A stretch of 12,415 nt of DNA from a virus (IMGVR_UViG_2541047931_000014:1-12415); one strand, 5' to 3'; counted from the first letter of the stretch, positions 1 to 11,406 are shown. Numbers and translations: made by a program. The notes: a model not told the origin generated them from the letters alone.

Positions 1-177
1 GCGGAGGTAATACACCGTAAGAGCTGGAAAAACCGTGCAGAAGTGGAACTGGCCACACTCACGTGGGTGGACTGGTATAACAATCGACGATTGCTGGAAA
101 GGCTGGGCCATACTCCTCCGGCAGAAGCAGAAAAAGCTTATTATGCTTCCATCGGAAACGATGATCTGGCAGCCTGA
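1..177 (+). CDS. IS3-family transposase (OrfB-like), C-terminal fragment; 5' part lies outside the window
   Basis: Frame 1 reads ...LTWVDWYNNRRLLERLGHTPPAEAEKAYYASIGNDDLAA* with stop TGA at 175-177. The W-Y-N-x-R-R-L-x-x-x-L-G-x-x-P-P-x-E pattern is the conserved C-terminal tail of IS3-family DDE transposases (recalled family knowledge). The track ORF 35..370 is a different frame. Confidence 0.6.
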   Translation, partial: AEVIHRKSWKNRAEVELATLTWVDWYNNRRLLERLGHTPPAEAEKAYYASIGNDDLAA

Positions 178-280
178 GTTCACAGATAAAACACTCTCCA
201 GGAAACCCGGGGCGGTTCAATCCGTACGGGGACGGGATACCGTTTTAATTCACAACAGCGAACAGAGTAATTACAGGGGA
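1..280 (+). mobile_element. Right end of an IS3-family insertion sequence (partial); exact terminal inverted repeat not identified
   Basis: The transposase ORF ends at 177 and the next gene's RBS and start are at about 275-287, so the IS terminus must lie in about 180-280. I cannot place the inverted repeat without its left-end partner. Confidence 0.4.
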
Positions 281-284
281 AGGC

Positions 285-782
285 ATGACAAAGCTGACCA
301 TAAACAGAAAACCGAAGGGCATTTACGGCACGCCGCAGAAAACAGCACAGGCGGCGCAGCAGCAGAATAAAACCACATCGGCGCATAAAGTGATGCCAGA
401 TAACCAGAACACACAGCAGAAGCTCACAGGAGCAACACCGCGGCGGCGTATGACCAAACAGCAGCGTAAAAACCGCAGACGCGTTAACCGTCTTATTGAG
501 CTATGGCCTGAATTATTCAGCCAGGAATCACCTAAGCCGCTTAAGGTGGGGATATTTGACGACCTGATACAGGATATTGCCGCGAGAGGTATTTCACTCG
601 GACAGGGAACACTACGCGCAACGCTGGCGCGTTATGTGCAGACTCCGCGCTATTACCGCGCCCTGGTAGCTGGTGGCGCGCGTTACGACCTGAAAGGCCA
701 GCCGTGCGGCGAGGTAACACCACTACAACAGACGCACGCAGGAAAACTACTGGAGGAGATGAATGGAAATAGTAAGAAATGA
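285..782 (+). CDS. ProQ/FinO-family RNA-binding protein (FinO-like RNA chaperone) with a basic, Gln-rich N-terminal extension
   Basis: ATG at 285 preceded by AGGGGAAGG. The C-terminal half reads [14 protein letters not shown]...[37 protein letters not shown], matching the ProQ/FinO domain signature as I recall it from E. coli ProQ (PLKIGIF.DL ... Y ... G..R.DL.G.PCGE). The N-terminal ~75 aa are K/R/Q-rich and low complexity. Confidence 0.75.
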
Positions 783-1179
783 TCACGCACATGGTCGCCG
801 TGCAGGTGATCACATTGTGGATGAAATTGCGGAAAAACAAAGAGTTGACATTGTTGTCAGTGTCACAGTCGAGAGCGCGAAGCGCCAAAATAAGCGTATA
901 AATGATCATTCAGATGTACATGGTGTGATCACTCGTTTACGCCAGACTTTTGTAACTCGTGAAGAGATGATTGAAGCTATTGACCAGCATACAGCATGTA
1001 TCAGCGTCAGGGATATACCGGAGATCATTGCTAACTACTTCATGATCACCAGACGCCTTTACCGGAGAAAAGACAAGAGCACGGTTAACCGTCTCCTGAT
1101 GTCTGATATTCGCGAATACCTGCAAGAAAGGGGCTATGTGAATCCACCAGAACAGCACTACGGAAGAGTCGGAGGCTAA
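763..1179 (+). CDS. Hypothetical protein, 138 aa, translationally coupled to the upstream FinO-like gene
   Basis: ATG at 763 preceded by GGAGGAG (752-758); overlaps the 3' end of the FinO-like gene by 20 nt. No recognisable motif. Confidence 0.5.
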
Positions 1180-1419
1180 CTAAAACCCTGTACCGAAGAG
1201 CGGCGGCGCGATGGGGTGAAGTAATGCAGTTGGGGAACTGACAAGGAACGGTATTACATATCAATGCGACGACTGGAATGTTCCAGGAAGGCACAGAGGC
1301 CACCGAAGCAACCGGATAATTTAGAAGACCTGAAACGGTCGCTTAAACGCACTGAAAAAGAAATGGGGATAGATGGGATCGGGAAATCAGTATGGCGTAA
1401 CTACCAGAAGTAAGCACAG

Positions 1420-1445
1420 AGCCGGAGCAATCCGGCTTTTTTTTG
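1420..1445 (+). terminator. Rho-independent terminator
   Basis: AGCCGGA-GCAA-TCCGGCT hairpin (1420-1437) followed by an 8-T run (1438-1445). Confidence 0.65.
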
Positions 1446-1544
1446 GCTGAAATCAATCAATCTGTTTTTGTGATAGAAATATGTTTATCTACCACTTTTT
1501 CAGATCAATAATGTGCATAGTTTAGTCAGTAAGAGGAAATTGCT

Positions 1545-1751
1545 GTGAATTGTATTAACGACCTGAACACAGGCGATGTCAGAGGTGGTTCCGTTCATCT
1601 GGATGCACAGACCGTGATGCGCCTTAAGCAGTACAGAATCGACCATGTGAACAATCACCCTGATCAGCCATTACCAGGCGTGGCGCAGATTGTCAGACAT
1701 GCCGTAAACGCCTGGCTTAATCAGAATGGTTTTGCATCGGGGGGTGAGTAA
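1545..1751 (+). CDS. Small hypothetical protein (68 aa); possible small DNA-binding regulator (speculative)
   Basis: GTG start at 1545 with AAGAGGAAA about 8 nt upstream, lying 100 nt after the terminator in an AT-rich promoter-like stretch. The segment GSVHLDAQTVMRLKQYRID ... VAQIVRHAVNAWL loosely resembles a strand-helix-helix layout, but this is not a confident call. Confidence 0.4.
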   Translation: MNCINDLNTGDVRGGSVHLDAQTVMRLKQYRIDHVNNHPDQPLPGVAQIVRHAVNAWLNQNGFASGGE

Positions 1752-1847
1752 TGAATCGCTGGTACAGCATCAAAGCAGAGGGACGCCAATGTTATCTAAC
1801 TCAGGTTTTATGAATTCTGACTCCCGATTCAAAATAGGAGGTTACTA

Positions 1848-4379
1848 ATGCCAGTCGTACCAACAGTATCCGGACGTCAGGTTGAGAGCCGTGGAGTTCA
1901 GTCAGCAGGCTTACAGACGTTTTCTCAGCCAGGTATTAGTGATGCTTTTGTTCGTGCAGGAGCAGAAGCAATTGATATTCTGGGTCAGGCAAAACAGCGT
2001 GCCAATATTGCCTTGGTTCAGGAGGCATCCCTTAAACTCAGTCAGACAGGCAGTGATCTGCTGAATAATCCTGAAACAGGATTGCTTAACCTGAAAGGGA
2101 AAAATGCTATTGGAAAAGGCCATGAGTATACACAGCAGTTTGATGCTCAGATCGAACAACTGGCTATGTCGCTGCCGGATGAACAGGCTCGTAATGCTTT
2201 CATGCAGCAGGCGCAGCAGCAGCGTATTCAGTTCGCTACGCAGGCCGGGAGGTACGAGATAGGGCAAATAAATGCCTACGAAGAAGGCCAGTTTCAGGCT
2301 ACGCTGCTGAACAATGGTAAAAATGCCGCAGCATTGTATGGCGACAACGCAGCATACATATTGGCTAATACGCAAACTTTCCAGCAAATTGAGGAGTACG
2401 GCATTGCGCATGGCTGGAGCGACGAGCAGATTCGGGCCAGGAAAATCGAGTTTAAAGAAGCAACAGCAAAAGCAACTGCTCAAAATGCTATTGGAGCAAA
2501 CTATCTTCAGGTAAGACAGCAAAACGGCGAGTTAAGCGATACTGCTGCTGGAGCTCGCCGTGCTGTAGCAGATAGTGGATCTTCCGATCGTATCCGCGGT
2601 ATACGCAACAATAACCCCGGCAATCTTGAATACAGCAAAACTAATCCGTGGGTTGGGCAGACTGGTGATGATGGTCGCTTTGCCAAATTCGAAACCCCTG
2701 AACACGGTATTCGTGCATTAGGGCGGAACCTGATGTCGTATCAGCGGCAGGGTATTGATACCGTCAGTGAGATAATTAATCGCTGGGCACCGCCCACTGA
2801 TAAAAATGACACAATGTCGTATATCAAAGCAGTGTGCGAACAACTTGGCGTTTCTGCTGATGAGCCTCTCGATGCATCTAATCCGGATACCCTGAAGGCG
2901 CTTTGTGCAGCCATTATCCATCATGAAAACGGTAGCCAGCCATACAGTGATCAGCAGTTAACTGCTGGTGTTAGTGCCGCGCTGGGGCTTTCTCAGCTAC
3001 CGACAAAAAATAAACGTTATACCGGTGTAGCCTGGTTCGATGCTTTAAGTGAATCAGATCAGGCCAGCGTGTTGCGACAGACTGATGCACTAGCCAGACA
3101 ACAGCAGGCTGAATATAAAACGATGCTCGACAGCCGGGTTCGCGATGCGACGGCTGCGTATATGCGTGGCGTTGAATTTCCTAACCCACCTGGTGAGGAT
3201 GATTTTATTGCAGCTTATGGAGTCAGAGAAGGAAACCTGCGATATACCGAGTTTAAGAATACGCAGATCGCCGGACAGTATATAGGCTCTTTCCGCAACA
3301 TGCCGACAAGCAGCATTACAGCATATGTTGAGCAATTACGCCCGGATACTGGTGATACAGGGGAGGGGTATGCGTCTCGTGCGGAGTTATTCGACCGGGT
3401 ATCGGCGGCAGCCACGAAGGTAATAACCCAGAGGCAGAATAATCCGTTTAGTGCAGCGGTGGAAATCGGATCCTATAAGCCGATCACCAGCAACAACCCT
3501 GACGACATCACTGCTGAGGTGGCTAACCGTTTCTCGTCGCAGGAAAGCTTACGCGCGTTGGGAATTAATGCCCCAATCCTCAATAGTGAAGAGGCGGCTG
3601 CGCTGGCACAGCAGGTGCGCGGCACTCAGAACGTTGACCAGACAATTAAACTATTGCAGAGCATGGGGGAAAAGCTACCTGCGCCAGCAATACGGCAGGT
3701 GGCATCTGTAATTGCTCCGAACAGTGCAGCAACAGCCTATTCTGCGCTGCTGCTGGGCACGCCGGATAATCAGTACGATAACACCAGGCCGTCGATCCCA
3801 TATAGTCAGTTCATCGGGTATAAGCCGACGATGAACAAGTACGACGTTGCAAAGGTTATTCTTTCCGGTGACCAACTACTGAATCCGACGAAGGCTATGA
3901 AGAATGCGGGCATAACTCCGGTACAGTTGCCGAGCGAAGATAAAATGAAGCGCGCTTTCGACGAACAGGTTGGTAATGCATTTGCCCGTAACCCAGAGAC
4001 GCGCCAGATCAGTTATAGCCTTTTCAAAGCCGCTTACGCAGGAATCGCTTATCAGTCTGGTAATACGTCTATGACGAGCACAGATGCGGTTAACTCCGAT
4101 GTGGCGGAGAAAGCTGCGCAGTACGCAACAGGCGGTGTATACAAGAGATTTAATGGTGGTGATGTTGTAATGCCTTTCGGCATGGATGAATCCACTTTCA
4201 AAGATCGCTATACCACATCAGCGAAACAAGCACTGAAAGATGCCGGACTTAACGTAAATGCAGTGTCAAACTTCACACCAGTTAATATCGGCAATAACCG
4301 GTATCGGCTGGTAAATGGTAGCGGACGCTGGGCAACAGATCCCAGAACCAATGAAGCTATTGTCGTGAGGGTTGAATAA
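1848..4379 (+). CDS. Large hypothetical protein (843 aa); phage ejection/internal-virion-like, with a conserved-looking NNPGN region that may be a cell-wall-hydrolase-like domain
   Basis: ATG at 1848 with AGGAGG at 1836-1841; 2.5-kb uninterrupted frame; Ala/Gln/Gly-rich. RIRGIRNNNPGNLEY...GRFAKFETPEHGIRALGRNL...INRWAPP lies at about nt 2590-2950. No Walker A or helicase motifs. Confidence 0.85.
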   Translation: MPVVPTVSGRQVESRGVQSAGLQTFSQPGISDAFVRAGAEAIDILGQAKQRANIALVQEASLKLSQTGSDLLNNPETGLLNLKGKNAIGKGHEYTQQFDAQIEQLAMSLPDEQARNAFMQQAQQQRIQFATQAGRYEIGQINAYEEGQFQATLLNNGKNAAALYGDNAAYILANTQTFQQIEEYGIAHGWSDEQIRARKIEFKEATAKATAQNAIGANYLQVRQQNGELSDTAAGARRAVADSGSSDRIRGIRNNNPGNLEYSKTNPWVGQTGDDGRFAKFETPEHGIRALGRNLMSYQRQGIDTVSEIINRWAPPTDKNDTMSYIKAVCEQLGVSADEPLDASNPDTLKALCAAIIHHENGSQPYSDQQLTAGVSAALGLSQLPTKNKRYTGVAWFDALSESDQASVLRQTDALARQQQAEYKTMLDSRVRDATAAYMRGVEFPNPPGEDDFIAAYGVREGNLRYTEFKNTQIAGQYIGSFRNMPTSSITAYVEQLRPDTGDTGEGYASRAELFDRVSAAATKVITQRQNNPFSAAVEIGSYKPITSNNPDDITAEVANRFSSQESLRALGINAPILNSEEAAALAQQVRGTQNVDQTIKLLQSMGEKLPAPAIRQVASVIAPNSAATAYSALLLGTPDNQYDNTRPSIPYSQFIGYKPTMNKYDVAKVILSGDQLLNPTKAMKNAGITPVQLPSEDKMKRAFDEQVGNAFARNPETRQISYSLFKAAYAGIAYQSGNTSMTSTDAVNSDVAEKAAQYATGGVYKRFNGGDVVMPFGMDESTFKDRYTTSAKQALKDAGLNVNAVSNFTPVNIGNNRYRLVNGSGRWATDPRTNEAIVVRVE

Positions 4380-6439
4380 TGTCTGATGTTTTTTCTTTGG
4401 CTCCAGAAGGTCAGGCATGGATTGACGACAAAACAGTTGCCAACCCAGCAAGGCCAGAAGACTACGATCCGACTCCCTTCCAGGGTTCAGGTACTGCACT
4501 TTTTAGCGGCGTGGCGGAGGGGGCTCTCGGTCTCGCGCAGTCTGCCGTCGGATTCAGCAAGCGCCTGATTAGCGATCCGGCATTTACCGCAGACGTGGCA
4601 CCGACTGTTAACATTTTTCGGGAGATGTTCCCTGATGCTGACAAAACACTGAATGATACATACGACACGATCGGAAAACAGTTACAGGATGCCCGCAGCT
4701 ATGTGAAGCCTGATGCAGGCAGCCAGGGAATGGCGGCAGAGGTATTAAATGAGCTTGGTAAATTTGTTCCTGCAATCGGAACAACTATGTTTGGCGGTCC
4801 CCTCATCGGCGCTGCTACAACCTTCAGTTCTACGTATGAGCAATCCTATCAGGATTTTAAAGGGAAGGGAGTAGACGAGGCTACGGCGCGTAACCTGGCA
4901 ACGCAGCAGAGCCTTTTCAATGCTGTGGGTATGGCCTTACCCGCTGCCGTCGGCACCACACTGGCAACGCGCATTGCCTCAGGTGTGGCAATCAACACCG
5001 GATTCGGTGGACTGAACCGTTACTCAGTAGGCGCAACACTGGAGGAAAAAGGCTACACGGAGATGGCAAAACAGTACCGGGTATTTGACGGTCAGGCGAT
5101 GTTAGTCGATGCCGTTTTAGGCGGGGTCTTTGGTGGCGTTCATCACCTGACTACCCATAATAACCATGATGGTACAGAGTCGAACATTTCTGCAGAAGAA
5201 ATAAAATCAACTTTTGGTGAACATTATCAGCAATCTCCTGATGGTAACATTGAGTCAATGGTTCGTGATTTATCTGATTCAGGAGTAATAGAACTTATTA
5301 ATGAACCAGCAATAAAAAATAGTGATGGAGAAATACTTCTGAATAAAGGTCATGTGACAGTAGCTTCTGGAAAAGAACCAATAATAAGAATAAATATTAA
5401 TGGATTAAAAGACCATGAAGAACTGTTAGAAACCCTTCATCACGAGGCGCTTCATCTTGAGCAGCGCCATTACCCTGACTGGAAGGCCAGAAAGCTAGCT
5501 AATGCTGTACTTAAATCTGCAAACAAGCATTCTGACTATCCTGAATTTGCATATGGGATGTCACAATATTATGAATATAAGAAAAGGGGTGAGTACCCTG
5601 AAACATATCCTGAGTGGTTGTACGCTGAAGAAGTTGCCGCACATGCAGTAAATCCATCTCTAAAGACAAGCGTTTCATCATGGGAAAAAATTATTTCAGG
5701 TTTTAAAGCCTATATATTCAGATACAGTGGTATTCAGGTTGGAACCGTTACACCTGAGCAGTTACGGTTACTCGTAAGTATGCGTCTTCGCAATATGAAA
5801 CTGGAAGCCGCAGTAGAAAAAGTTTTTGGTATCCGGGCGAGGGAAAGAATAAAACCAAGCGATATTGATGCAGCCCACATTTTGAATGAGGGGCTTCATT
5901 ACGATATTGAATCGTCACCAGTGCTTCACACCAGCAATGAGAGCATCAACAGCCATGTTGACGCCATGGATGAAGCATACAGGCAACTTAATGATGGTCA
6001 GCCTGTAAATGTTGGGGGGATGGCGCGAGGGCTTGATGGTCCATTGCGATCAGATATATCTGATACTTACCAAGAGCAATACCATGAAATACAAAAGGTT
6101 TTTGAAGAAAATGGTGTCAGATATGAAACATCATCAGAGCCAATTAGTGAATCGCCTGTCCCTCGTGCTGAAAGTGCTTTCTCATCGGCTGGTGAACACA
6201 GAGGGGACGTCAGCGTTGATCCAGATACAGGGCAGGTTCTCTCATCCAACAGCTATGACCTTATGGCTGCCAGGGACATGGCTGTTGCCAATCCTGAGCT
6301 GACTATAGCTCACCCGGAAACCGGAAACCCGACAAAACTTTCTGATCTCCTGGCTGAGTTGGATGAACAGATTAAGACAGTCCAGAACGAATCGAAGGTT
6401 TATTCTGTAGCGGCAGCGTGCTTCTTGAGGAACCCATAA
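4379..6439 (+). CDS. Large hypothetical protein (686 aa); Gly-rich hydrophobic N-terminal half and a low-GC C-terminal segment containing an HEXXH (HEALH) motif
   Basis: ATG at 4379 overlaps the upstream stop (TAATG, 4377-4381). Gly/Ala-rich hydrophobic stretches (GTTMFGGPLIGAATTF, MALPAAVGTTLATRIASGVAINTGFGG, VDAVLGGVFGGV). HEALH is encoded at 5441-5455 within a segment of about 35% GC (about 5160-5760) versus roughly 45-57% in the flanking coding sequence. Confidence 0.85.
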   Translation: MSDVFSLAPEGQAWIDDKTVANPARPEDYDPTPFQGSGTALFSGVAEGALGLAQSAVGFSKRLISDPAFTADVAPTVNIFREMFPDADKTLNDTYDTIGKQLQDARSYVKPDAGSQGMAAEVLNELGKFVPAIGTTMFGGPLIGAATTFSSTYEQSYQDFKGKGVDEATARNLATQQSLFNAVGMALPAAVGTTLATRIASGVAINTGFGGLNRYSVGATLEEKGYTEMAKQYRVFDGQAMLVDAVLGGVFGGVHHLTTHNNHDGTESNISAEEIKSTFGEHYQQSPDGNIESMVRDLSDSGVIELINEPAIKNSDGEILLNKGHVTVASGKEPIIRININGLKDHEELLETLHHEALHLEQRHYPDWKARKLANAVLKSANKHSDYPEFAYGMSQYYEYKKRGEYPETYPEWLYAEEVAAHAVNPSLKTSVSSWEKIISGFKAYIFRYSGIQVGTVTPEQLRLLVSMRLRNMKLEAAVEKVFGIRARERIKPSDIDAAHILNEGLHYDIESSPVLHTSNESINSHVDAMDEAYRQLNDGQPVNVGGMARGLDGPLRSDISDTYQEQYHEIQKVFEENGVRYETSSEPISESPVPRAESAFSSAGEHRGDVSVDPDTGQVLSSNSYDLMAARDMAVANPELTIAHPETGNPTKLSDLLAELDEQIKTVQNESKVYSVAAACFLRNP

Positions 6440-9195
6440 TGAAACAGGCATGTGTTGAAGCTATTGCGCAGACACTTGGTCGCCAGCCAAAGGCTGATGA
6501 GCTGAAAAATATTGAAGATCGTATCAAAGAAGCTGTGCAGCATGTGCACAGAAAGAATGCAAAAGAAGGCAAAAGTGGTATTCCTGATGCTCAAACATAC
6601 ATGGATGCAGCAGAACTGGTACGCCAGCGTGTGGTTCATGATGTGTACAAGAAAAGACAGCGTGTTGCCCAGAATGCGATCGCCATCAGTAAAATTACTG
6701 ACACTCTCGATGCTAACATCCCGCCTGATCAGCAGACACCTGTTAATTTGCAGCAGTTTATTTTTGCTGGCCGACGATCGAGAGACAAAGCTGATATCTC
6801 CGTTACTTCTGCTGAAGAGCTTGCAATTGGGGCATATCAGGACTGGTCCCGTCAGCTCAGTGCTGAACTTCTAAAAGCAGGTGATGACGTCCGCAAATTC
6901 TTCGAGCAGAGCAGGGCGCTTGGAGAGCAGCGGTTTCGGAGTGTATTCGACAGGCAGGCGGCAAAGTCTGCACAACTCCAGATCCTGAAAGAAATTTATG
7001 GCGAAGATACCGGGAATCCCCTGGCGAAGAAAATTGCACAGATTTGGAAGGATGTAACAGGGCGTGTTCGTCATGAGATGAACGACAACGGCTTTGACAT
7101 AGGCCTGCGAGAAGACTGGCATACGCCATATGTGGATGATGCTGACCTTATTCGCAATGCCGGGCGCGAAGAATGGCTGGCATCGTTACCAGTGGCAGAG
7201 CAAGCTACAGTACGTCTTTCAGGTCGCCAGCCACCTATTGAGTTTGCCCGCCAGAAATGGGTTGATGACGCTTACAACACGCAGGATCGCAGCAATTACG
7301 TTAATCCTGACGGCAGCATTATGAATGACGTCGAGTACCGTCAGGCACTGGAAGCGATCTTTGAAACGAAGGCCACTGATGGGGCAAACAAAATTGAGCC
7401 CGGTACATTTATGGGAGACGGAGGAATAAAGAGCCGTGGTTCTCAGCACAGGGTGATGGCGTTCAAGGATGCGCAGTCACACTTCGCCTATATGGAGCGA
7501 TACACTCAGCAGCCGCTGGTGGGGGTGATGATGTCGCACCTGCAATCATCATCCAGGGATTTGGGCGTCGTTAAAGCCTTTGGTCCGGACGCCGAAAGAA
7601 ACTTTTCCCTGGTACTGGATCGCATCTATAAGCGCGCAGTAACAGGCGGGAAACGCAAAAAAGAAATGGAGGATGAGGCCAAATTAGTTGCCCGTATGTT
7701 CAACTCAATGGCTGGCCTAAATGGTGTCGCTTCATCGAGTGTGTTCTCTTCAGCAGTTGGTGGTCTGCGTAACCTGATGACCAGCGCCATGCTTGGCACC
7801 AGCGTACTGACAGCAACCAGCGACCAGGCAATTATGCGGGCAAATGCGCAGGCGCTGGGCTTTACCCGTGGTGGAATGCGGCTTTCCGTTAACACTATCA
7901 AAAACCTGTTTAGTGGAGATGCCAAAAAGGCGAATGCTGAACTCGGTCTGCTGGTGGATTCACATGCTGCTGTGGTTTCGAAAATGGGCGGGTTTGACTT
8001 GTCTCGCGGCATAACTGGCTGGTTCGCAGAGAAGACACTGAAGTGGTCCGGGCTGATCGCTATGGACCGCGCAAACAAAGCGTCGTTTGGTCTCCTGATG
8101 TACAAAAACATTGGCGAGCTGACCAGAAAATTTAAGACGCTGGACGATATAAAAGGAACCGATAAAACCATTCTGGCTAACAAGGGATGGAGCAATGAGG
8201 ACTGGGCCATCATGGCAGCGGCAGAACTCAGGCCGATGACTACTGCCGGGCATATGGGGATGACGCCAGACGCGATTTACGCTGTGCCCGATAACGTAAT
8301 CGCCGACATTATGGCAGACCGTATTGCCCGGATTCGTGCCGGGAGTGAAAAGGCACTGGCAGCCCTTGGAGATCTCCCTCCAGAACGCCTGAAACGGATG
8401 AAAGAAGCATTCGACGCAGAGGCTGAGCAGACCATCACGCGCATGATTCGTAATGCACGCGCTGAAGCAGCCCAGAAATTGCTGGGAATTACGCACGGTG
8501 AGATGACCAATGCTGTGACCACCGCTACGGGTATTGATACATATGCCCATGACGATGCTGGCGAGTTAATGAAGAGCTTCATGCTCTTCAAAACAACCCC
8601 ATTTGCTGGATTTCGGCAACTTGTTAACAGAACACGGGATTTGGACACCGTTCCGGCCATTAAATTTCTGGCCTCATATATCGGGGGAACAACTCTTGCT
8701 GGTATGTTTGCGATCCAGATGAACAGTTTGTTAAATGGTAATGATCCGCTGGATATGACAAAACCAACCACATGGGTTCAGGCTTTACTGAAAGGTGGTT
8801 CGTTCGGTATCTACGGTGATTTTATTTTCCAGGACCATACGCAATATGGCTCCAGCATCGGTGCCACTATGGGTGGCCCTGTGTTGAGCTTTGCAGAGCA
8901 GTTAACAAAATTACTGATTACTAACCCACAGAAGGCTCTACAGGGTGAAGAAACATCATTCGGTGCCGATGCACTGAAAACAGCCCGCATGATCACCCCA
9001 TTCGCAAACCTGTGGTATGCGAAAGCGATAACCAATCACCTGATATTGCAACAACTTCAGGAGATGGCAAACCCTGGTTACAATGATCGAGTAAGGGACC
9101 GCGCGCAACGGGAGTTCGACATAACGAGTTGGTGGGAACCGGGTGCTATTGCGCCACGTAGAGCACCGGATTTTGGAAAGGCGGTAGGGGAATGA
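6439..9195 (+). CDS. Large hypothetical protein (918 aa from the ATG at 6439; the track's 6418 start is an upstream in-frame GTG); ejection/internal-virion-like
   Basis: ATG at 6439 overlaps the upstream stop in the same TAATG arrangement (6437-6441), with GAGGAA 7 nt upstream. 2.75-kb frame. No nucleotide-binding motifs seen. Confidence 0.85.
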   Translation: MKQACVEAIAQTLGRQPKADELKNIEDRIKEAVQHVHRKNAKEGKSGIPDAQTYMDAAELVRQRVVHDVYKKRQRVAQNAIAISKITDTLDANIPPDQQTPVNLQQFIFAGRRSRDKADISVTSAEELAIGAYQDWSRQLSAELLKAGDDVRKFFEQSRALGEQRFRSVFDRQAAKSAQLQILKEIYGEDTGNPLAKKIAQIWKDVTGRVRHEMNDNGFDIGLREDWHTPYVDDADLIRNAGREEWLASLPVAEQATVRLSGRQPPIEFARQKWVDDAYNTQDRSNYVNPDGSIMNDVEYRQALEAIFETKATDGANKIEPGTFMGDGGIKSRGSQHRVMAFKDAQSHFAYMERYTQQPLVGVMMSHLQSSSRDLGVVKAFGPDAERNFSLVLDRIYKRAVTGGKRKKEMEDEAKLVARMFNSMAGLNGVASSSVFSSAVGGLRNLMTSAMLGTSVLTATSDQAIMRANAQALGFTRGGMRLSVNTIKNLFSGDAKKANAELGLLVDSHAAVVSKMGGFDLSRGITGWFAEKTLKWSGLIAMDRANKASFGLLMYKNIGELTRKFKTLDDIKGTDKTILANKGWSNEDWAIMAAAELRPMTTAGHMGMTPDAIYAVPDNVIADIMADRIARIRAGSEKALAALGDLPPERLKRMKEAFDAEAEQTITRMIRNARAEAAQKLLGITHGEMTNAVTTATGIDTYAHDDAGELMKSFMLFKTTPFAGFRQLVNRTRDLDTVPAIKFLASYIGGTTLAGMFAIQMNSLLNGNDPLDMTKPTTWVQALLKGGSFGIYGDFIFQDHTQYGSSIGATMGGPVLSFAEQLTKLLITNPQKALQGEETSFGADALKTARMITPFANLWYAKAITNHLILQQLQEMANPGYNDRVRDRAQREFDITSWWEPGAIAPRRAPDFGKAVGE

Positions 9196-9533
9196 AAAAG
9201 TTAAATACACCAACCAAAAGAGTTGGGGGGCTTCTGATTGTCATTGGAATTATATTTATACTTGCATCTATAATAGAAATATCAAGTAATGAGTTTGCTA
9301 TTTCTGATAGTCCATATTATCGATCGCTAAATGCATATGATATTATTTTTATGTATTTAGAGCGAATTACAGATACTTTCATCATGACTCTAACATTTCA
9401 AACATGGAGTAGCCGTTTCAGTATATTAATGTTAGTAGGGTTTTGTTTATTTATTGTTGGTGTTCTTATTTCATATTTTTACGATGCTGGAATTGGCAGG
9501 GTTGTTAAGTGGATAAGAACGGGTAATTGGTGA
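9192..9533 (+). CDS. Small integral membrane protein (113 aa, two predicted transmembrane helices), very low GC; candidate exclusion/immunity-type cargo
   Basis: ATG at 9192 overlaps the upstream stop (ATGA, 9192-9195). Hydrophobic stretches LLIVIGIIFILASII and FSILMLVGFCLFIVGVLISYF. GC is visibly much lower than in the upstream genes. Confidence 0.7.
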   Translation: MKKLNTPTKRVGGLLIVIGIIFILASIIEISSNEFAISDSPYYRSLNAYDIIFMYLERITDTFIMTLTFQTWSSRFSILMLVGFCLFIVGVLISYFYDAGIGRVVKWIRTGNW

Positions 9534-9864
9534 TTATAAGCAAGCTATTGGTTTCATTGTTTATATCGTTGTCGGAACTTTTTCAACTGACAGCAATCAT
9601 AGCCGGGCTTGAATCGTGGTGGGGATTGCACTGGATAATTGCAGCCCCATTGCTTTCATCGTGAGCTATATTCCATTTGTTGGAGCGATTGTTGGTATGG
9701 TTGGCGCTATGGATGTATGGTGTTGGGAGTGGTGGCAGGCTGGCCTTCTATTCTTTGGCGGATCATCTTTGCTATTGTCAGCGGTGGAATGTCATCATTT
9801 TTCGAATGGCTATCATTCAGAAAAAGAGCGTGACATGTCACAGGCCGCTTTCGCGGCCTTGTTT

Positions 9865-10026
9865 TTAACGAATGCCACCACCGCCCGGGCGGGAATCCGC
9901 AGAACGCCCACCGCAGCGGGAGCCGTCAGCGGCAGTATCGCTGTCGTGCTGACAACGACCGGCAAAGGCCTGAGTTGAAGCTACCAGAGACAACAAAACG
10001 AACAGTGCAGCAAATGCTTTTTTCAT
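9865..10026 (-). CDS. Candidate small secreted peptide (53 aa) with an N-terminal Sec-type signal peptide
   Basis: Minus-strand ATG at 10026-10024 encodes MKKAFAALFVLLSLVASTQAFA|GRCQHDSDTAADGSRCGGRSADSRPGGGGIR, with an AxA-type cleavage site. Candidate promoter TTGACG-N16-TATAGA lies just upstream on the minus strand (about 10040-10070). It is antisense to overlapping plus-strand ORFs, so assignment is uncertain. Confidence 0.35.
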   Translation of the reverse strand: MKKAFAALFVLLSLVASTQAFAGRCQHDSDTAADGSRCGGRSADSRPGGGGIR

Positions 10027-10096
10027 TGTGAAATTTCCATCTATAAGCCACCTCGATGTGGCGTCAATGAATGTAGCACTGACTTTTGTTTCGTCC

Positions 10097-10119
10097 ACAA
10101 AAAAGCCCGCGCTGCGGGC
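10097..10119 (-). terminator. Rho-independent terminator acting on the minus strand
   Basis: GC-rich hairpin GCCCGC-GCT-GCGGGC (10105-10119) preceded on the plus strand by an A-run (10097-10104), so the minus strand reads hairpin then TTTTTTGT. Confidence 0.5.
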
Positions 10120-10728
10120 TTACCAAAACTTGTACCACGGGGATTTATCCTTCAATGGACAATCCTTCCATCGTGTGGCCAGCCATTCATATTCTTTGTC
10201 TTTTCTTCAGTACCGGCTTTGCATCTTCTACACCCTGAAAGATGTCGTTTTATGGTGTATCTGATGATTTATTCCCTAACAATAGATATTCGAAAAATTA
10301 ATCAGTTAAAACAATTATTTGGATAATTTCAGGTAAAAACTATCTTAATCTTCTGGTGGATCTCAATGCGCCGTGACGGTATCGGGATTAAGGGCGTGGA
10401 TATTCGCGATATATGCCGCTACACCCCTCAACAGTAATAGATATGCGCTTTTCACTCTCTCCTTTCACTGCTGAGAACGGCAACAACGTGCCACAGGAAC
10501 GCGCTGTAATCGATTCTGACGCACTTAATTGCGTTGGGTAATGGTTTGCCAGCCTGTGGGGGTAACTCTGTTTTATGAGGCTTTGGCTATAGTGCAAAAA
10601 TGCACTTTGTCTTGCCTCTCAATTTGATGAGACTGGAACGACAACAGGACAGACCACCAGCAACAGTTACCGTATTCAGCCGTTCTGTGGCACCAGTGGA
10701 ACTATCCACCCCTGCTTTCAGCAATGTG

Positions 10729-10782
10729 TTTGCGGGTTATTTTGGGGCGTTTGCGGGTTATTTGGGATGTTTTGCGGGTTAT
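10729..10782. repeat. Iteron-like array: three perfect 12-bp direct repeats TTTGCGGGTTAT at 21-bp phasing
   Basis: Copies at 10729-10740, 10750-10761 and 10771-10782, separated by 9-bp spacers. Confidence 0.85.
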
Positions 10783-10857
10783 GCGATGCTTGAATAATGA
10801 ACAGTGCATTTTGCAACATATTGATACTAAAGAACAAAAAATAGTTAGCACGCTAAG

Positions 10858-10884
10858 ATAACCCGGTAACCCGCATAACCCGCA
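10858..10884. repeat. Three tandem inverted copies of the iteron core
   Basis: ATAACCCGG (10858-10866), TAACCCGCA (10867-10875) and ATAACCCGCA (10875-10884) are reverse complements of TGCGGGTTAT. They are separated from the direct array by a 75-bp AT-rich spacer. Confidence 0.75.
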
Positions 10885-11406
10885 CTGTTTTGTATATATA
10901 TACGAAAAATTGCATTCAGGAGGGGGGATCGAAATCCCTACAACCCATTGCTTATGGGACCGCCGCCTCGTCAAATTTTTACACCCGCGAAATAAAAAAT
11001 ACTTCACGCTGGTGGGCATGATGCTGATATGAGAGGCTTCCATAACGCCACCATTCGAAACTATGCAAATCTGCATAGAAAAGGGGATGCCTGATACAAT
11101 ACCCTCGCCCGATAAAATCACACCGATAAACTCATCTGCCACGAGTAGAAAGAGCGAACGAACCCGATACGCAGTAATGCTGGTCGGGTCCAGCTTTTTA
11201 AGGCGGCTGTAGATATCAGGCCATCCGTGATCATCCACCAGCGTAATTGCTGAACGCTTTAAAAAAACGTGTACATAAGGGTGTACATAATCAAAAACCG
11301 CATTAGAAAGAAACCAGCTACAATGCGGCATTGAAGCCAACACTCTACAAACAGATTCAACATCGAATAACTCGTAACGCCAATTCTTACTTTTCCGCCT
11401 TCACAA

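Follow-up and report, generated by a model that had tools for sequence, protein, structure and literature searches.

A conserved 53-codon minus-strand gene for a putatively exported peptide, carried in a moron-like cassette of prophages and other mobile elements

The locus and its coding strand

The window analysed in this work, a stretch of viral DNA of 12,415 nucleotides (IMGVR_UViG_2541047931_000014), carries on its minus strand a micro-gene of 53 codons plus TAA (9865..10026), which begins with the ATG at 10026, ends with the TAA at 9867..9865, and has as its translation MKKAFAALFVLLSLVASTQAFAGRCQHDSDTAADGSRCGGRSADSRPGGGGIR. The first 22 codons (9961..10026) specify a putative signal peptide, recognized by inspection, and the remaining ones a mature peptide of 31 aa (9868..9960). 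On the side of the start codon the gene is preceded by an intrinsic terminator of the same strand (10095..10121); directly past the stop codon there is a GC-rich hairpin (9842..9859), followed by a perfect 12-bp palindrome, GTGACATGTCAC (9830..9841). Because the window contains 97 ORFs of at least 40 aa, a length of 53 codons is not above chance, and the status of this ORF as a gene rests on its conservation and not on its length.

The ORF is present in the databases under several names. Its product is 100% identical to gp43 of phage TL-2011b, a "putative transmembrane anchored protein", to which the name "transmembrane anchored protein" in other database records can be traced, and the copies in other E. 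coli phages also encode a protein 100% identical to it. WP_000708858.1 ("hypothetical protein") is the RefSeq annotation of exactly this ORF at the homologous place in E. coli relatives, and several hundred E. coli chromosomes share 95-99% identity with the region. The peptide also matches PHROG 14503 (E 2.3e-40, residues 1-53 against a 53-position profile), a family labelled "membrane associated protein" and assigned to the moron category. Searches of Pfam and NCBIfam gave zero matches for the peptide, a PDB profile search with E up to 10 gave nothing, and neither the peptide nor its neighbours match any PADLOC model. When 27 members of the family were searched against Pfam with E up to 10, the only matches were weak, restricted to single members and located outside the conserved core. 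In the literature we found nothing on the micro-gene, whether by its family name, motif or accession or by way of TL-2011b.

The strand under coding selection was determined on a codon alignment of 14 orthologues from different Enterobacterales genera. The overall pN/pS of the sense frame is 0.27, and the block of the mature peptide has 0.15, with a pS of about 0.71, that is, with synonymous sites near saturation; the minimum numbers of substitutions at codon positions 1, 2 and 3 are 52, 28 and 105, respectively. The frame of the plus-strand ORF 9616..9978 gives a pN/pS of 1.8 and has stops in 10 of the 14 orthologues. All the frames other than the sense frame range from 1.8 to 2.7, save one antisense frame that shares wobble positions, whose pN/pS is 0.22 and which yet has stops in 7 of the 14 sequences. 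Furthermore, 80 viral contigs with an identical protein comprise 34 DNA haplotypes, with about 20 polymorphic sites that are all third-position and synonymous; as this set was picked for protein identity, it is supportive and not independent evidence. The preliminary description had proposed this minus-strand micro-gene and held that just one strand could be coding, and both the selection test and the conservation across the family bear this out: the micro-gene codes for a protein and is under purifying selection. The minus-strand frame is a genuine gene, annotated already but never studied.

As to the three plus-strand ORFs that had been described as overlapping it in antisense, this is correct for ORF 9616..9978 (120 aa), which shares 114 nt with the micro-gene, while the overlap amounts to merely 4 nt for 9677..9868 and to none for 9639..9833. 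The long ORF is an artefact, a frameshifted remnant of a membrane-protein gene that crosses the terminator. In strain 2022E04-002 there is an intact gene for a small membrane protein of 78 aa, which extends from about 9599 to 9833 in window coordinates. Compared with the intact 78-aa gene of locus L001, the window presents one-base deletions near 9645 and 9760, in addition to a change of ATG to ATA at 9599-9601. The two deletions leave the gene divided among three frames; the frame of 9616..9978 skips the normal stop (9833), passes the terminator and enters the antisense of the micro-gene. Its residues 10-54 match phrog_3075, the real gene, and its residues 52-120 match phrog_25977, which is nothing but this antisense ORF in those phage records that call it, and both matches fit the frameshift origin. 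The reverse reading, with ORF 9616..9978 as the real gene and the micro-gene as its accidental shadow, has next to no probability: the plus-strand ORF is the longer of the two, it has two PHROG matches, and in ExPEC XM PGAP annotates a 96-aa plus-strand gene with its start at about the same position, but its frame within the overlap shows the pN/pS and the stops mentioned above, and its N-terminal half is a piece of a gene that normally stops before the terminator.

Terminators, promoter and cassette

Both terminators are confirmed. The upstream one, already recognized on the minus strand in the preliminary description, consists of a stem at 10121..10103 with 8 pairs, followed by the T-tract TTTTTTGT. 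In phages it comes right after the stop codon of the upstream variable gene, and the comparison of the 80 viral contigs showed that the hairpin sequence is swapped in some loci, with the T-tract and all the downstream sequence remaining constant. The hairpin past the stop codon of the micro-gene is a good terminator for the plus-strand operon, with the tail TGTTTTTAA, and the phiV10 record labels the equivalent region 'terminator'. It is also the sole terminator available to the micro-gene, here without a T-run in the gene's own direction; such a T-run is found in loci L006, L007, L014 and L017. A hairpin past the stop is present in 13 of 14 Enterobacterales loci, and the other one, L011, has none in the 90 nt shown. 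The convergent plus-strand operon terminates at 9842-9868, short of the micro-gene ORF. The palindrome, which is kept in Klebsiella, Kluyvera and Buttiauxella loci, marks the 3' edge of the conserved cassette. Rfam, searched with the whole window and E up to 1, gave no match, and a tRNA search found none in the window.

The promoter had to be reassigned. The preliminary description had given the gene a near-consensus promoter, TTGACG-N16-TATAGA (10040..10067, minus strand), with TTGACG at 10067..10062, TATAGA at 10045..10040 and a spacer of 16 nt. We judge that this element is probably not the one that drives the gene. It matches 9 of 12 consensus positions and has no T at -7; the promoter scan omits it precisely because TATAGA lacks a T at the last position, and 9/12 matches occur in the region at chance level (5 observed, 6.5 expected). 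Neither hexamer is conserved in other genera, and the element overlaps a hairpin that is. Besides, a transcript starting from it at about 10033 would have a leader of about 7 nt, which would exclude the conserved GGA ribosome-binding motif.

The alignment of the 77 nt before the ATG in 14 genera points instead to a probable extended -10 element, TGcTACATT (10070..10078, minus strand), 25 nt upstream of the former assignment. The T, the A and the final T of a TAnnnT hexamer are conserved in at least 90% at a constant distance from the hairpin; the hexamer reads TACATT (10075..10070) in the window and TACAAT, TACACT, TACGCT or TATTAT elsewhere. In the E. coli copies a TG stands one base before the hexamer, as in extended -10 elements, and all other E. 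coli copies read TGcTACACT where the window has TGcTACATT. In the 80 viral contigs the element is constant and lies at the start of the conserved block. A weak candidate for the -35 element is TGGACG (10092..10097, minus strand), 16 nt upstream of the -10: TTG or TGG recurs at this place, poorly conserved, directly after the T-tract of the upstream terminator. By consensus the proposed promoter is weak, with 4 of 6 positions in each hexamer, and the micro-gene may also be transcribed by read-through from upstream. A sigma-54 promoter of the form TGGC-N7-TGG was considered by eye and rejected, given that the essential GC at -12 is missing and that the pattern is absent in Pectobacterium.

Between the -10 element and the start codon there is a hairpin, GCCAC-atcgag-GTGGC (10047..10062, minus strand), which is kept in 12 of 14 genera as a stem of 4-7 bp located 6-8 nt past the -10. 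Its arms differ and still pair (GCCGC/GCGGC, GCCGTC/GATGGC, TTGCC/GGCAA, ACAAATC/GATTTGT), and hairpins are enriched over shuffled sequences (combined Fisher p 4e-6). RNAalifold, run on a MAFFT alignment of the upstream regions, predicted no pairs, owing to the different loop lengths of the sequences; for this reason the hairpin was judged by per-sequence searches and shuffles and its covariation by eye, which is weaker than a formal test. The fold of the whole predicted mRNA is uninformative (z = -1.8). A Shine-Dalgarno-like GGA (10036..10038, minus strand) is located 9 nt before the ATG, within a conserved box, ATAGAT/ACACAT-GG-(A/T)AA (10034..10044), and the other genera present AAGGA, AGGT or GGTAAG at its position. 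Transcription would most likely start at about 10062-10064, and such a start would give a leader of about 37 nt that opens with the hairpin. It is also possible that the hairpin acts as an operator at the DNA level.

The limits of the cassette could be read directly from the 80 viral contigs. Their identity starts at the T-tract of the upstream terminator and stops just past the palindrome, and beyond either edge there are at least 10 unrelated sequences, which delimits a cassette of about 270 bp (9830-10101 in the window). The GC content is 0.56-0.59 over the ORF compared with 0.27-0.48 in the flanks. In complete epsilon15-like prophages the order is constant, with a rightward operon of ejection proteins, a small membrane gene and the leftward micro-gene; in TL-2011b and in locus L069 an Arc/antirepressor pair replaces the small membrane gene. 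Upstream on the strand of the micro-gene there are the terminator, the variable gene (a YafO-family toxin, DUF2335, DUF4760 or a hypothetical protein) and a BRO-N gene, and beyond them the tailspike and lysis genes. The cassette is present in TL-2011b, HEMP4, phiv142-3 and EC.W1-9. In phiV10 the gene is absent, with the terminator and 23 nt from the end of the ORF as all that is left, and in ExPEC XM it is deleted, with about 44 nt remaining. The window copy encodes the same 53-aa protein as TL-2011b gp43 and is flanked by the same cassette, but where TL-2011b is a complete epsilon15-like prophage, the window copy is found in an island of about 20 kb without capsid or tail genes, and it lacks the upstream variable gene.

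Altogether, the cassette was found in 426 of 5426 complete E. coli genomes (about 8%) and on 304 IMG/VR contigs. In a mobilisable Klebsiella plasmid of the ColE1 type, of 3.36 kb, the micro-gene is the only cargo gene listed. Morons, reportedly a concept of Juhala, Hendrix and colleagues, are said to be extra genes with a promoter and a terminator inserted between conserved phage genes. The cassette has this layout: it is patchily present between conserved genes and among variable neighbours, it is flanked by terminators on both sides, and its base composition is deviant; its own promoter is a candidate deduced from the alignment. It differs from phage morons in that it is also found on plasmids and islands, with homologues far outside phages.

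The encoded peptide and its family

The N-terminus of the protein presents the features expected for Sec export, as the preliminary description had proposed: MKK, a hydrophobic core of 13 residues (AFAALFVLLSLVA) and A-F-A followed by G, all recognized by inspection. A22, at position -1, does not vary among 40 homologues and is usually followed by G, and the sequence of the signal peptide drifts across homologues with its hydrophobicity kept. These features suggest that the protein is a substrate of Sec export and that signal peptidase I cuts it after A22. A lipoprotein or a bacteriocin release protein was discarded, as there is no lipobox L-[AS]-[GA]-C; in the F-A-G-R-C stretch an Arg stands between the G and the C.

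The mature peptide, described from the beginning as Gly-rich and with two cysteines, does contain 8 Gly and 2 Cys among its 31 aa, along with 5 Arg and 4 Asp, and is hydrophilic. In three alignments the columns of the core C25-x4-D30-x-A32-x-D34-G-S-R-C38-G-x-R41-x4-R46-P-G-G49 are invariant or nearly so, and the protein of the window has every invariant column of this core (C-x4-D-x-A-x-DGSRCG-x-R-x4-RPGG). Conservation is thus concentrated from C25 to G49, which is nearly invariant, while the hydrophobic segment is variable. The two cysteines, C25 and C38, most likely form a disulfide that would close a loop of 12 residues. An AlphaFold2 model (pLDDT 74, pTM 0.35) shows a helix for the signal peptide and then a loop with a bridge and short turns; it is only moderately confident and adds little, and Foldseek of this model against the PDB gave no fold match.

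An alternative to cleavage is that the segment is an uncleaved signal-anchor, which would hold the 53-aa protein in the inner membrane and leave its conserved tail facing the periplasm, as with MgrB and other small membrane regulators. The database names are in its favour ("transmembrane anchored protein" in RefSeq and TL-2011b, "membrane associated protein" in PHROG 14503). We nevertheless regard this topology as unlikely, considering that the A-x-A site is canonical, with an invariant A at -1 and usually a G after it, that the hydrophobic core has just about 13 residues, that in homologues a lipobox or an unrelated signal peptide takes the place of the segment, and that the tail is conserved and the helix is not.

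The family extends well beyond the phages of E. coli. A pattern scan with one genome per species gave 57 loci or genomes, in Enterobacterales and beyond; the carriers outside this order include Mesorhizobium, Rhizobium, Bradyrhizobium, Devosia, Methylobacterium, Agrobacterium, several cyanobacteria, Vibrio, Bacteriovorax and a myxobacterium. A profile search gave at least 681 clusters at 90% identity, and an exhaustive HMM search 570 representatives at 50% identity. Nearly all the members have 45-60 aa, made up of a signal peptide, the core C-x4-D-[RT]-A-[AS]-D-G-S-R-C-G-x-R-[AS]-x3-R-P-G-G and 1-5 further residues. Some cyanobacterial homologues have a lipobox instead of a signal peptidase I site. 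The settings include a probable prophage, a copper and arsenic resistance island and rhizobial plasmids, and no neighbour gene is shared across the 57 loci.

There are also longer proteins. One group of them starts with a signal, followed by the domain, a transmembrane helix and about 170 aa of cytoplasmic tail, an arrangement that places the domain outside the cytoplasm, and in other long proteins the motif is C-terminal or in tandem; Pfam gave no match for 20 longer fusion proteins. A few long homologues have a lipoprotein signal, then an internal hydrophobic segment and only then the domain, which would be cytoplasmic there if this segment spans the membrane. The topology of a few C-terminal cases is uncertain, and some long homologues may be over-extended gene calls. 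The family is best described as a widespread uncharacterised mini-domain, whose membership is established by the searches and whose location is probably extracytoplasmic.

Among known domains, we compared the family with Excalibur, a calcium-binding domain with the motif DxDxDGxxCE. The two are alike as extracytoplasmic mini-domains in which a D-x-x-x-D-G-x-x-C stretch is preceded by another Cys. However, Excalibur (PF05901) was not matched in the Pfam search of 27 members with E up to 10, the Cys spacing is 12 in the micro-gene family compared with about 30 residues, and the micro-gene family has one invariant acidic position and three invariant Arg.

Possible working and function

Taken as a whole, we consider it probable that this is a genuine and independently transcribed small gene, located in a moron cassette of about 270 bp and encoding an exported peptide. 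A sigma-70 promoter with the extended -10 TGcTACATT (10078..10070), immediately downstream of the terminator of the neighbour gene, would produce an mRNA from about 10062-10064, with a short stem-loop, the GGA site, the ATG at 10026 and its end at the hairpin 9859..9842. Sec would export the product of 53 aa, signal peptidase I would cut it after AFA (residue 22), and a hydrophilic Gly/Arg-rich peptide of 31 aa would be released into the periplasm, where the C25-C38 disulfide would close the loop of 12 residues. Our guess is that the peptide might then serve the prophage, plasmid or island that resides in the cell by binding a conserved envelope component, and that its role might be an accessory function of the lysogenic-conversion or exclusion type.

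As no partner gene is conserved, the peptide probably acts alone, and as there are three invariant Arg and one invariant acidic residue, an anionic ligand is favoured over a metal site. A more detailed proposal, tentative and rather unlikely to be right in all its parts, is that of a mini-domain outside the cytoplasm, about 26 residues long and with three invariant Arg and one disulfide, present in several phyla and spread by phages, plasmids and islands as a promoter-gene-terminator cassette, which would act alone in the periplasm on a universal anionic ligand of the envelope or on an incoming enzyme, e.g. a phage ejection transglycosylase, and would produce an exclusion or protection phenotype.

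T4 Spackle is a phage exclusion factor aimed at the tail lysozyme, and Ivy, MliC and PliC are periplasmic lysozyme inhibitors, of which Ivy uses a disulfide-closed loop. The micro-gene product might likewise be a periplasmic inhibitor or decoy that shields the lysogen, for instance by blocking, like Spackle or Ivy, the ejection proteins with which superinfecting epsilon15-like phages cut the cell wall. It would be a specific version of the general explanation given above. The position of the micro-gene in prophages is suggestive, since it adjoins the ejection-protein operon, with its annotated lytic transglycosylase, and belongs to a leftward accessory cluster with variable genes, among them a YafO-family toxin; the predicted periplasmic location and the putative disulfide-closed loop would also be suitable. 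The resemblance to Spackle, Ivy, MliC and PliC, which are all small periplasmic proteins exported by Sec, is an analogy only: there is no detectable similarity of sequence or fold to any of them, nor any match in Pfam, PADLOC or the PDB, and the peptide is much smaller, with 31 aa. The presence of the family in a metal-resistance island, rhizobial plasmids and cyanobacteria speaks against a purely phage-specific role, and the CQHD loop of the enterobacterial copies is not kept family-wide. We consider that such an inhibitor is improbable as the specific function.

A released bacteriocin, microcin or signalling peptide is very improbable. A small Gly-rich peptide with cysteines, carried by mobile elements that include a tiny ColE1-type plasmid, might recall one, but its leader is of the Sec type and not the double-glycine type of class II microcins, genes for immunity, export, modification or a receptor are absent from its vicinity, as is any conserved neighbour in the 57 loci, and the extreme conservation of the mature sequence across phyla is contrary to the diversification that such peptides typically show. 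An arbitrium-like phage signal was also considered and rejected, in view of the conservation of the mature sequence across phyla and of its presence in non-phage settings.

The preliminary description had also suggested a toxin-like peptide, or that the upstream hairpin could mark the 3' end of a minus-strand sRNA. The small size, the hydrophobic N-terminus, the convergent transcript nearby and the strong terminator could be expected for a type I toxin-like membrane peptide under an antisense RNA or for an sRNA ending at the 10097-10121 hairpin. We see barely any probability in either, because the conserved part of the peptide is the hydrophilic mature domain and the hydrophobic segment is variable, the plus-strand operon terminates before reaching the ORF, Rfam has no match, and in phages a variable protein gene has the upstream hairpin immediately past its stop codon, as the end of its mRNA, with different hairpins exchanged at this place.

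Regarding the window itself, the coding strand is settled, the promoter assignment is corrected and the long antisense ORF is explained as a frameshift artefact. The micro-gene is of a known kind, a prophage moron for a small, putatively exported peptide; its extreme conservation, with no curated family to describe it, makes it a modest lead rather than a surprise. On a wider scale, this work draws attention to a very small protein family for which we found no Pfam entry, structure or literature, and no unusual mechanism is indicated. The family hardly changes in sequence between E. coli prophages, rhizobia and cyanobacteria, mobile elements carry it about as a self-contained cassette, and a conserved accessory gene of this kind is a reasonable candidate for work on small proteins or on phage-host interaction.

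The island that holds the window

Positions 1-11351 of the window make up the right-hand part of a ~20-kb island, whose whole extent could be seen in the related locus L005, where the integrase adjoins tRNA-Gly. The island of the window is placed between yicC and dinD, and the chromosomal homology starts again at ~11352. Its gene content includes Rha/Ant/BRO-N, Icd-like, DUF4222, a DUF927 primase, SSB, ProQ/FinO (285-782) and PerC, the last of which is followed in island order by genes for three large internal virion (ejection) proteins of the epsilon15/phiV10 type (1848-4379, 4379-6439 and 6418-9195). Capsid, terminase and tail genes were not found in the ~20 kb island, as covered by the window and L005. 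Judged by its sequence, the element looks like a phage satellite equipped with podovirus ejection proteins; to our knowledge, satellites bearing such proteins have not been described.

Another aspect to mention is a stretch of 82 bp (10919-11000) that presents 86% identity to the annotated cos site of the Stx phage phiP27, which would fit a satellite island packaged by cos. Near this stretch, positions 11130-11200 match a fragment of P1 rlfB. The minus strand of the same region carries an ORF of 213 aa (10702-11343), a candidate gene that had no match in Pfam, NCBIfam, PHROG or PADLOC; a 251-aa version of it is annotated in E. coli ExPEC XM, and no gene is annotated at its place in strain GF4. 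In E. coli A3176 (locus L003, 15483-15605), a sister island with different large cargo genes, DUF919 among them, is adjoined by a truncated cas5 of the type I-E CRISPR-Cas locus.

Sequences flanking the micro-gene

The conserved cassette that surrounds the minus-strand micro-gene has its 3' edge marked by a perfect 12-bp palindrome, GTGACATGTCAC (9830-9841), flanked by a plus-strand stop codon on one side and by the terminator hairpin on the other. The Klebsiella, Kluyvera and Buttiauxella loci retain this palindrome at the same position, where it may serve as a binding site for a protein or mark a recombination junction. The leader contains, after the 5' hairpin and ahead of the micro-gene's start codon, a conserved box (10034-10044) composed of ACACAT/ATAGAT and then GG(A/T)AA. 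It is present in most of the Enterobacterales copies, and is longer than a ribosome-binding site requires.

On the plus strand, the window has only a pseudogene version of a small membrane-protein gene (78 aa, 9599-9833) that strain 2022E04-002 carries intact: its start codon has changed from ATG to ATA (9599-9601), and a single base has been lost near 9645 and another near 9760. All three lesions are also present in ExPEC XM.

Plasmid copy and long relatives of the peptide

A copy of the micro-gene, 72% identical, was found in a 3.36-kb ColE1-type Klebsiella plasmid (NZ_CP138754.1; locus L072, 2104-2265), where it is the sole non-mobilisation gene listed in the PLSDB gene tables, which are incomplete. 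Furthermore, the Cys-loop domain of the peptide occurs in a subfamily of longer proteins of 220-290 aa (P0151, P0159, P0162, P0183 and P0194), for which the Pfam scan gave no match. Besides a signal peptide and the Cys-loop domain, these present a conserved NPDTDW and a transmembrane helix, and their cytoplasmic domain, uncharacterised and ~170 aa long, contains the motif GGNxxDAAxxYML. The free peptide encoded by the micro-gene may have a receptor-like relative in this subfamily.
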